Below are positions 52,220 to 55,800 of a DNA stretch of 63,825 bases, piece after piece. The notes beneath the pieces are model-generated. The model was not told the DNA's origin, made no database searches, and was given only the letters and a program-made list of their open reading frames with translations. The stretch's first letter is position 1. Every line of letters begins with the position of its first letter. The DNA lies in assembly GCA_051294375.1 (NCBI GenBank), contig CM119266.1:20342516-20406340 (forward strand), given 5' to 3'. The DNA comes from Paraspadella gotoi (lineage: Eukaryota > Animalia > Chaetognatha). The position numbers and the translations under genes were made by a program.

Positions 52220-52831
52220 TCATATGTTGGTGTGATGTCTCTGTCTGACGTGATTTTGTCCCGGTTTTTGCGACTCGACAACGGCGACGTCCCGCGACGA
52301 AGTTTGGATGAGCGACGTCGTCGGCGAACGAAGCGGCGGAGGGGGATGGGAAACCACGACCGTCGGGCCGCCGAAAGAGAGGGAAGAAGTAGAGGCCATG
52401 GGGAGTGGGCTGGGAGAGGGATAGGCTGCGCCGACGTAAGGGTGGGCGTGGCCAGAAGGGTAAGCGACGCCAGGGAGCTGAGCGGGATGGCGATGATGAT
52501 GGGGATGATAGTGAATGGCAGGCACGAGGCCCGGAGGCGGACTCGCGACCGAAGACACGAGGCCGATGTGCGGACCGCCCAGCGAGGTGACGCGGACACC
52601 TCCGAAGTCGTCGACGCCGCGGCCGCCGCCGCCGAGACCCGCCATCCGCTCCGACGCGTTCCCCAACGGTGAGACGCCGCCGCCGATTTCCACCATCGCC
52701 AGACTAGTGGCCACCAGACCTTTACCCGGGGTAAGGCGAAGGTGAGGAACGCTGGCGAGTCGCTGTTGTTGTTGTTGATTTAGTTGTTGCTGGTCAAATG
52801 GGTGCTGTTGATGATGAAGTTGCTTGTGTAT
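52220..52831 (-). CDS. Putative 203-aa stop-codon readthrough extension of the cadherin
   Basis: The frame stays open from the codon after TAG (52834-52832) to TGA at 52222-52220; Q/H/P/G/S-rich, ends HHTNI. Confidence 0.55.
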   Translation of the reverse strand: MHKQLHHQQHPFDQQQLNQQQQQRLASVPHLRLTPGKGLVATSLAMVEIGGGVSPLGNASERMAGLGGGGRGVDDFGGVRVTSLGGPHIGLVSSVASPPPGLVPAIHYHPHHHRHPAQLPGVAYPSGHAHPYVGAAYPSPSPLPMASTSSLSFGGPTVVVSHPPPPLRSPTTSLIQTSSRDVAVVESQKPGQNHVRQRHHTNI

Positions 52832-55800
52832 CTAGTCGTCCTCGACATCAGCGCTGGCTCCATACATGTCAGCCAGCTTCGCAAACTGAGGACCCCAGTT
52901 GTAAAGATTCGTAAAATCTTGGTCCTGGATCAGGGGGAAATAAAAATTCAAAACTTTTCGCGTTTTTAACAAGAAATTTGTGATTATAAAATTAACATTC
53001 GAAAGCTGACCTGATCGCCCTCGCGACCATCCGAAGAGTTGAGGGAGGAAAGGCTTCCCGCAACGCTACCACCGCCTTCGTATTCGAAGGGCAGAATCTC
53101 GTCAGGGGGCGCTGAAAAATGGGAACAGGATCATGGATCGGGTGGTCATAGAAAAAAAGGGGGGGAGGAAGGAGGGAGAATGTCGAATGAACCGGATATC
53201 CCCCTTTCTACCTAAGTCGTCTTTCTCAGCGTCTTGAAGTCTGTCGTTGATAAAGTCTTCGACGGGGAAATCGAGAACGGTGGGAGGAGGTGGAGAGATG
53301 CCTGAAAGAAAAGATAAAACAAAAGTAAGCCATAAGTTAATTCGGAGATGAAATGAGGATTATTGAGTGACAAAATCGGTACTTGGTGAATCAATACTTG
53401 GTGTGGTTTCTTATTGCATTTTGTCGCCAAAGAGTAAAACTATGGGGGGAAAAAAATCGGAACGAGCGAACCCGTCGAAACCGTAGTTTTAGATCTTGTG
53501 TTTCACCATTTAGTACTAGAGTGTCGATAACAATTTTTAAATGTATGTTAATAATAGCCTAATAAGAATATTTTAACATTATTATTTTAACGAAATAATA
53601 AATATTGCTAAAATTATTTCTGGTACCTATCGAAGCAAACAATTTTTACTCGATTAACAAAAAGGGATCAATAAATTATATTAAAAATGACTCGCATTAA
53701 AAATGTCTGAGAATTAAATATAATCTTATTTGTCTTGTTAAAAAATGGTCTGAAAGTTCCATAAGTCATGTTTTTTTCTTTTGGCGTGAGGCGGAAGTGG
53801 TGCTTTCACTATCAGTATACGGCCACATAAATCTGGCCATAAGGAAAAAGGAAAAGGGATATGCTGACGCGGCTGGCAAATGGGAAATGGCTTGACCAAT
53901 CGAGCGACGACATCCAAATGAAAAAAAATCGGACCTCGTTTCCTTTCCTATCGACACAGTTTTTTCTCGTTCTCTCCCCTTGGCCTTAGCGACAAGGCGC
54001 GCGCGTGCACGAGAGAGAGAGAGAGAGAGAGAGAGAGAGAGAGAGAGAGAGAGAGAGAGAGAGAGAGAGAGAGAGAGAGAGAGAGAGAGAGAGAGAGAGA
54101 GAGAGAGAGAGAGAGAGAGAGAGAGAGAGAGAGAGAGAAACTATTAAAAGAAGGGGAAAAAACTATTTTCGCGCTCAAAAAAGGCCTTTGTTTATGAAAT
54201 GGAGACCCATTTTAAAGCTCCGTAAACACATCTAAAATACATTATCTTTCAAACGCGGAAGACATTTCAGTGGGCTCGAAAATGTCTGTTGGGAGGAAAC
54301 TCAAGAAAAAGAAAGAACAACAAACGAATTTAAAAAAATTAAGATCTTCTCAGCGAATCGTTCGCGCATGTAAAAAAAAAGTGAAGTAAGTTTTCAGGAC
54401 TAATACGCGCAAATTAACTATTCAACAAGTGAAAAAAAAGGTATAATTAGGTAGCTTTTAATTCGGTAACGAAGCGCCATCTGTGGTACTCATTCCCTTT
54501 TCTAAACTTTCCCTTCCCCGTCCAAAACACAAAAGAAAAGTTGGCGACAAATCCATTCCCTTTCTTCGCCGTTTAACCGTTTTTTTTTTACGCCAAGGCT
54601 TCGACGCTTACCCATTCGAAGAAAACCTCCTCTTCTCTCTTTCTCTCCACTCTCTTTTCCACCGACGGAGAATCGTAAAATGAAATTGAGTCGTCAATTC
54701 CGGTCGGTGGCGACCGACCGAATCCGAATGAAACCAGCCACCGTGAAGATTCCTTTTCAGAGAGGCGCCTCCCCCCTCATTCGGGCCTGGCGTCGACGAC
54801 CGCGCCATGCGAGTCACACGCCTCCCCCCCCCTTTCTCGCCCCTCTGTCGGGACGGGTTAATCGCAAAGACGCACCTCTTAGCTTATTATGGTGTGGTTA
54901 AAAATAAAACGTTCCTAATTATATTAGGGTGTTTCTAAATTTAGCCATGAGGTGTAACGAAAACTGTTTCAACAGCATTACTTTCACAGAAATCACTTAC
55001 CGAAAATTAATAAGTTTTAAAATTCCCGGGAGTTTAAACAATTTAATAAAAACAAAATAAAACAATTGAGAAAAATGACTTTCTATCTAAACTAAATTAT
55101 TCTAGTTTGACGTATTGTTAGTGGGAAAACTCATTCGAGCTCGACAGCATTAAGATCCCGATTACGCTATACATATTACAATAAAAGCAGAATATTGTTT
55201 TCTCAGACACGGAGATTTTGATAGGCATCTGGTAGTTTGTTTATTGTGAAATTTAGTATTTTATTCGGTTTTTTAAACCAGAGTTAAAAGTGTTTATATT
55301 TTTTTATGTGCTCTGCGCTTCAAAGACTTCTGAAGATACAGCTCATAAAAAAAATTAAAACAACTTTAACTCGGGTATGAAAAACCGAATAAATTACCAA
55401 ATTTTACAAATAAAAAAATTATATTATGATAATAAATATGACAATATTTAACCACCAATATCTTACGTTTCGTAGGCGCGTAAGATTGATGCAACGACTC
55501 GTCGAGAGGCGGCCCGTGTCCATTGGGACCGCCGTTCATTCCCGCGTTCATGGTTCCGCCCAGGCCACCGTTAACGGGCTTCTGAAGGAGTCGGGGATCG
55601 TAAGCGTCCGTGTCTTCTTCGCCTGCGAGTCGACAACAAATTTATATTTTTCAAATCAAATATACGATCGTATTCAAGTAATGTTTTAGAAAGTCACCTG
55701 GTCCTTCTTCATCGTATTTAATAATGTCCGAGGCCTCGTCATCAATGCTAAAAAGTAGAATGGGATCGTAAAAAATTTAATTCTTGTTAAGTTTCGATTG

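Follow-up and report, generated by a model that had tools for sequence, protein, structure and literature searches.

Candidate UAG readthrough into a 203-codon second reading frame in a classical cadherin gene of Paraspadella gotoi

Introduction

Stop codon readthrough has been described for several genes that resemble the one considered here, a classical cadherin gene on the minus strand of a 63,825-nucleotide stretch of the genome of the chaetognath Paraspadella gotoi (GenBank assembly GCA_051294375.1, contig CM119266.1, positions 20,342,516 to 20,406,340; hereafter the window), in which the TAG stop codon is followed by 203 sense codons in the same frame. The Drosophila drifter/vvl gene (dfr) is described as having a UAG, decoded there as glutamine, a conserved stop region and a long in-frame extension of 286 amino acids in its readthrough form Dfr-L (PMC13170385, PMC4528330). 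L-MPZ, the readthrough form of myelin P0, is likewise presented as a homophilic adhesion molecule with a TAG, conserved stop surroundings and a cytoplasmic extension (PMC7070019). Adhesion proteins with UAG readthrough also occur in the FlyBase list (caps, 240 amino acids; Dscam2, 39 amino acids), and none of the 334 rows of the 2015 FlyBase readthrough table carries a Cad- symbol or shg. The human cadherin CDH23 belongs to the non-classical cadherins. Its mRNA, from the same superfamily as ours, is reported to show about 5% readthrough in a reporter (PMC5868278). In insects and Daphnia, second open reading frames (ORFs) are said to have coding scores intermediate between coding and non-coding sequence, and readthrough regions usually diverge fast and change in length, as seems true here; by the account of the same survey, Pancrustacea were the only group among 52 species in which readthrough proved abundant (PMC5100048). 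Readthrough extensions have also been described as low-complexity disordered tails (PMC9226519).

We consider that the best reading of the cadherin locus, and a reasonably probable one, is programmed UAG readthrough yielding a minor isoform with a low-complexity tail. Judging from sequence, the second ORF is probably a real extension that is translated. The readthrough mechanism is already known; a classical cadherin would be a new setting for it. A literature search that lacked most subscription papers and some supplements turned up no published case of a classical cadherin with readthrough; within the same limits, the only tunicate nuclear gene that came up in this connection was that of selenophosphate synthetase.

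Results

The stop codon and the second ORF

The last cadherin exon starts at 52924 on the minus strand (the original prediction, made from the sequence alone, stated no strand) and codes for 30 residues, the end of the beta-catenin-binding region (52835..52924; Pfam PF01049, E 5e-8; spliced in sample X9). It then reaches the TAG at 52834-52832, the candidate readthrough site, whose next letters are A, T and A. From there 203 in-frame sense codons (52831-52223) run to a TGA at 52222-52220; the coordinates and both peptide ends originally quoted for this cadherin and its ORF are correct. The second ORF has a Gln/His-rich start followed by Gly/Val-, His/Pro- and Ser/Pro-rich parts, with 51% P, G, S, Q and H residues taken together and neither Trp nor Cys. 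Its GC content is 62% (72, 51 and 64% at the first, second and third codon positions) and drops to about 0.3 from 52160, some 60 nt past the TGA, so that the passage from GC-rich ORF to AT-rich sequence noted originally is real. Behind the cadherin TAG the GC content is 0.63, against 0.33-0.40 behind four other presumed stops in the window, each of which is followed by 10-48 open codons.

A Pfam scan of the second ORF matched no family. A single-sequence AlphaFold model gave it a pLDDT of 48 and no confident fold, which is weak evidence, and a FoldIndex of 0.096 does not call it disordered overall. Homologue searches returned none of 885 candidates at E 1 for the ORF alone, and none of 3965 for the last exon plus ORF against longer proteins; a metagenome scan yielded one match (L001), which was false and apparently bacterial. 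Class I PDZ ligands have the C-terminal pattern S/T-x-hydrophobic, and the three residues preceding the second stop (52220..52222) fit it, at a chance rate of 3-4% for endings of this composition. A PDZ hook at the end of the extension is possible but unsupported.

Stop and ORF on one spliced RNA

Eleven sequencing runs were found, of which six were compared with the locus. Four of them, X5, X7, X8 and X9, are distinct from S1, which may be the source sample. None of the eleven runs is recorded as RNA; X9, from a separate study, X10 and X11 are taken as RNA only because their contigs skip introns exactly, their RNA status being a guess. The TAG is not an assembly error: X5 and X9 have no other letter there, and X7 and X8 have none over 52795-52897. 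A 1240-nt X9 contig skips 86- and 100-nt GT-AG introns and spans 52923-52152 with three other letters, no gap and an unchanged TAG, thus placing the real stop and the second ORF on one mature RNA-like contig. Further X9 contigs extend past 50300 and cover the AT-rich sequence at 50300..52219, at least part of the 3' untranslated region (UTR), where the first AATAAA stands at 51550. Polyadenylation upstream of 52220, named originally as an outcome that would refute readthrough, is contradicted by contigs that continue beyond that position, and neither AATAAA nor ATTAAA occurs between the TAG and 51649. The X9 assembly appears to break at a real splice branch at 55894 but not in the last exon, which we read as an internal control against a branch there. 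Contigs lose rare forms and lack strand, so that minor splice or edit forms could be missed in X9. We rejected double readthrough at the TGA, behind which 89 codons are open (51950-52219): X5 and X9 both have a 1-nt deletion at 52151, variants are dense there, and the stretch shows no frame signal.

A codon signature specific to the cadherin frame

To train a codon model, 32 exon segments were picked by hand from the window; they comprise 2258 codons, not all of them verified, and exclude the ORF. A frame contrast was then computed that sets frame 0 against the two remaining frames and leaves stops uncounted. The contrast of the ORF is 0.255, compared with a mean of -0.002 (sd 0.058) in dinucleotide shuffles, none of 5000 reaching it; codons 25-203 alone score 0.291, again reached by 0 of 5000 shuffles. 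Training-set exons range from 0.02 to 0.75. Only 2 of 1668 overlapping background frame-windows match the contrast of the ORF, both with 7-8 stops, and none of the 96 with a GC content of at least 0.5. Third positions of fourfold-degenerate codons tell the same frame apart: A occupies 8 of 132 in frame 0, whereas the alternative frames have 23 of 135 and 42 of 152, which is the order found in the exon set (161/1122, 274/1306 and 405/1347), and frame 0 still has 8 of 117 once tandem identical codons are removed. In a block test that allows for local repeats by leaving each 20-codon block free to take any frame, the ORF obtains p 0.014, five held-out genes 0.0003-0.23, and the 609 nt past the TGA 0.76. 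The second ORF hence bears a coding signature specific to its frame 0, with weaker codon measures being equivocal (see below), and it is this signal, unlike the length of the ORF, that lifts it beyond chance.

Apparent conservation around the stop

Runs X10 and X11 provided spliced orthologue contigs from two related organisms, B (3899 nt) and C (1094 nt) respectively. In B, 7 of 85 and 5 of 85 letters differ in two exons and 11 of 32 at 52855-52886 (7 of them synonymous, by hand count), against 1 of 36 at 52819-52854, a segment that takes in 20 nt upstream of the stop, the stop itself and 13 nt downstream. The comparison of this stop region with the adjacent coding sequence gives a Fisher p of 0.0008, with borders picked after the fact. 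In C, a 26-nt piece of the same region (52819-52844) aligned on the same contig, the adjoining coding letters being unaligned. The next 30 loose letters beyond 52819, read by hand in the cadherin frame, hold Gln or His codons at 9 of 10 places in B and 8 of 10 in C; they are assumed to be adjacent to the alignment, which is backed by B and C having the nearest seven in common. The letters that spell these codons are not the same in B and C, and the phase of a CAN repeat is kept for 14 codons in the three organisms. No piece of the B and C cadherin contigs matched 52220-52818 at 80% identity, and C did not align in the comparison restricted to the narrow stretch around the stop, which amounts to no cover and is not proof of divergence.

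Twenty-two within-species variants were counted, 20 of them in the 1920 nt downstream and two in the ORF, where the expected share was 0.24 (p 0.07); one of these two is silent and neither is an indel. This deficit is weak, because the X5 contig is invariant over neighbouring introns too.

Evidence against readthrough, and alternative explanations

A number of results weigh against readthrough. On the coding side, the codon model picks the correct frame in just 19 of 32 held-out segments, the raw best-frame score of the ORF is reached by 283 of 832 background windows, and a synonymous-only score prefers frame 0 slightly (0.056 vs 0.038 for frame +1). The absence of frame-0 stops has a P of 0.006 when judged against 20,000 mononucleotide shuffles and of 0.09 against as many dinucleotide shuffles, which makes ORF length alone weak evidence and chance a possible cause. 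Across species, the TAG of organism B is probably intact, judging from the alignment, but the place of its one differing letter is not visible, nor is the mismatch count in C. The 13 post-stop letters on their own have P 0.03-0.23 at neutral identities of 0.65-0.8; both alignments end at 52819, with unlike letters from 13 nt past the stop; cross-species support spans 14 of 203 codons; and a C/A-rich strand seldom makes stops, so that the open frames of B and C carry little information. Of the two variants in the ORF, the non-silent one changes Arg to Gly. Finally, the context is UAG-AUA, not the leaky UGA-C, and it lacks a 3' stem-loop, both features being common without being obligatory. In mammalian cells +4 A is reported to lower UAG readthrough and +5 U mostly to improve termination (PMC5829715); the original prediction itself noted that UAG-A is not the leakiest context. 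The fold 3' of the UAG that it proposed to look for did not appear: no stable fold was found near the stop (z -0.86, 0.93 and -0.04), the lowest z in the ORF was -1.96 among 8 windows, and long-range pairing was no better than in shuffles (best -34.8 vs a null mean of -33.1 kcal/mol).

Part of this evidence is what would be expected of an untranslated 3' UTR rich in GC and triplet repeats, whose conserved stop letters would represent an RNA element or chance and whose frame would be a by-product or a decaying remnant. The span of the ORF contains only four stop triplets over all three frames (one in frame +1 and three in frame +2, the overlapping frames being partly open, as had been cautioned), and with the dinucleotide P of 0.09 this suits an untranslated region. 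So do the many triplet and dinucleotide tracts in the genome, the better score of frame +1 in the first blocks of the ORF, and the end of the B and C matches after 13 nt. Such a region would leave unexplained the frame-specific codon and third-position signals across the distal 179 codons, and a CAN repeat that holds the cadherin phase in three organisms; moreover, a GC content above 0.56 is seen in 0 of 832 non-coding 609-nt windows. We therefore regard an untranslated region as unlikely, even though it fares best among the alternatives.

Somewhat less likely again is a splice that skips the stop by joining the phase-0 donor at 53011 to the TAG or a later in-frame AG, replacing the last 30 residues by the tail. 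Suitable sites exist, as this donor shares phase 0 with the TAG and with six AGs that come later, up to 52477; the frame signal and the conservation directly past the TAG would be accounted for, and contigs would drop a rare variant. Yet the sequence upstream of the TAG is a poor acceptor (pyrimidine share 0.41 and T 0.18, vs 0.82 and 0.47 at the real acceptor), no matching joint occurs in X9 or X10 contigs, and third-position conservation just upstream of the stop would be left unexplained. If A-to-I editing changed the UAG to a Trp codon in some transcripts, protein and conservation pattern would be no different, and minor edits are not visible in contigs; we nonetheless rate such editing as very improbable, X9 carrying the unedited letter and no local or long-range duplex exceeding shuffles. 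An equally slender chance is left to the distal ORF being a separate 158-residue product that starts at its first ATG (codon 46), either by reinitiation or as the downstream gene of an operon. An AG lies shortly upstream of this ATG and about 20% of Ciona genes are stated to be in operons (PMC2760879), but conserved in-phase codons precede the ATG, no poly(A) hexamer occurs from the TAG to it, the contig is single and unbroken, and the search with the ORF alone (0/885 at E 1) gave no homologue. That TAG is generally a sense codon in this organism, or is a sequencing error or private allele, can practically be dismissed: Gln would suit the Gln-rich surroundings, but the TAG is unchanged in four other samples and stands where cadherin tails usually end, all 77 Gln codons among the 2258 training codons are CAA or CAG (though the segments were picked from stop-free frames), and the sole tRNAs in the window are two tRNA-Cys.

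Structure and class of the cadherin gene

By its sequence features the gene is a classical cadherin, type I/II-like, with cadherin repeats, a PF01049 tail and no EGF or laminin-G domain before the membrane; none was present between repeats and membrane helix in the exon chain or the Pfam-scanned frames, RNA support for the chain running from 55894 down. All its exons lie on the minus strand, its introns are short, and the gene is compact within a gene-dense window, past which it extends. Read from the sequence alone, this compactness and a domain layout that vertebrates and urochordates have in common would probably point to a tunicate. Four ectodomain exons with cadherin repeats, supported by exon borders and cadherin matches, occupy 62118..63001. 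One of them (62466-62369) matched 78 cadherin/protocadherin-family chains up to E 10, the best at E 2.5e-8, and the four exon-containing ectodomain frames gave no Pfam match. Two alternative exons, A (61777..62025) and B (61189..61455), would each complete the last ectodomain repeat and supply the first half of the membrane helix, with a frame open into the common exons; BLASTP did not align them to each other. The X9 contig begins exactly at 55894, the acceptor common to both, which suggests that both are in use.

Three exons with AG/GT borders and an open frame (55894-55825, 55747-55698 and 55622-55467, within 55467..55894) code for the second half of the membrane helix and the juxtamembrane region, and their lengths add up to exactly the 276 letters that the X9 contig has upstream. 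They are followed by a cytoplasmic exon (53212..53301), which X9 and X10 both contain in spliced form, and by the penultimate exon (53011..53111) in the beta-catenin-binding region, whose donor is in phase 0 and whose joints appear in X9 and X10 (PF01049, E 9e-9; E-cadherin tail match, E 5e-6). Both last exons exceed the Pfam curated cut-off for the cadherin cytoplasmic family PF01049. A homologue search with the penultimate exon matched 3 of 23, the ENA proteins P0001-P0003, which are 87-92% identical with apparently the same exon borders.

Neighbouring features

A plus-strand gene of unknown family, with a presumed end near 50227, converges on the cadherin (50227-52219); the X9 contig over 50300-52145 extends 755 letters further, and the two 3' regions may abut or overlap. 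Elsewhere in the window, a plus-strand gene with alternating EGF and reelin-like repeats (about 35600-44500) harbours the two tRNA-Cys genes (37476-37550 and 37631-37702), and the minus strand carries a RUN-domain gene (about 20600-25700) and a DOR-family gene (29015-31141). Similar non-coding text is repeated at least twice, in both orientations, at about 9100-16600, suggesting local duplications or mobile-element remnants. On the plus strand, 1692-3152 holds an acidic ORF of 486 codons; it contains short internal repeats and matched nothing in Pfam.

Discussion

Of the readthrough isoform proposed originally, the extension is backed by the frame-specific codon signature, by a spliced contig without breaks and by a stop region that seems conserved in relatives; its PDZ ligand, a motif with a 3-4% chance rate, is unsupported. 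In the mechanism that we favour, a fraction of ribosomes would pass the UAG of the cadherin RNA and continue for 203 codons, and the protein-like frame signal would reflect this translation. Near-cognate decoding of the UAG, with Gln as the residue described for Drosophila dfr (PMC13170385), appears to be the simplest route because it explains the frame signal, the continuity of the RNA and why letters are conserved both before and after the stop. The readthrough signal would then probably be the conserved sequence around the stop and not a hairpin. The product would keep both catenin-binding regions, the beta-catenin-binding region being intact, and add a low-complexity, probably disordered tail. 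This tail would approximately double the cytoplasmic region and, speculatively, could modulate how the cadherin clusters, binds its partners or is endocytosed, as a comparison with the C-terminal region of desmoglein-2 might suggest (PMC3494854).

A more ambitious form of this proposal can be offered tentatively, as something that may well prove wrong: a conserved adherens-junction cadherin isoform in which an unstructured, A/C-rich UAG signal would switch on a desmoglein-like tail of 200 residues, an insect-style, Gln/His-rich readthrough outside Pancrustacea regulating a core adhesion receptor. The solved cadherin tails matched here end just past the beta-catenin site, and tail length is usually assumed to be fixed. 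If readthrough is confirmed, two tails would arise from one mRNA and junction stability could be tuned post-transcriptionally. It would also be a case of long low-complexity readthrough outside the group with known abundant readthrough, and without the usual UGA-C or hairpin.

The type I/II classical cadherins of vertebrates and urochordates, as characterized in PMC3216324, likewise pass from repeats straight into the membrane helix and have a PF01049 tail, whereas the present gene adds two alternative membrane-proximal exons and the post-stop ORF. Dfr differs in being a transcription factor whose experimentally shown readthrough is reported to depend on a conserved stem-loop (+10 to +58) that has no counterpart here (PMC13170385, PMC4528330). 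L-MPZ is a non-cadherin of tetrapods, with an extension of 63 amino acids and proof in vivo (PMC7070019), and human CDH23 is presented as relying on a UGA-CUAG motif and reporter evidence (PMC5868278). Readthrough in insects and Daphnia is described as occurring mostly at TGA-C (PMC5100048). The nearest functional model is desmoglein-2, whose C-terminal unique region is likewise long, disordered and placed beyond the armadillo-binding part of the tail, an analogy made without sequence comparison. That region is constitutively encoded and built of 29-residue repeats, unlike the tail considered here, and is reported to slow endocytosis (PMC3494854).

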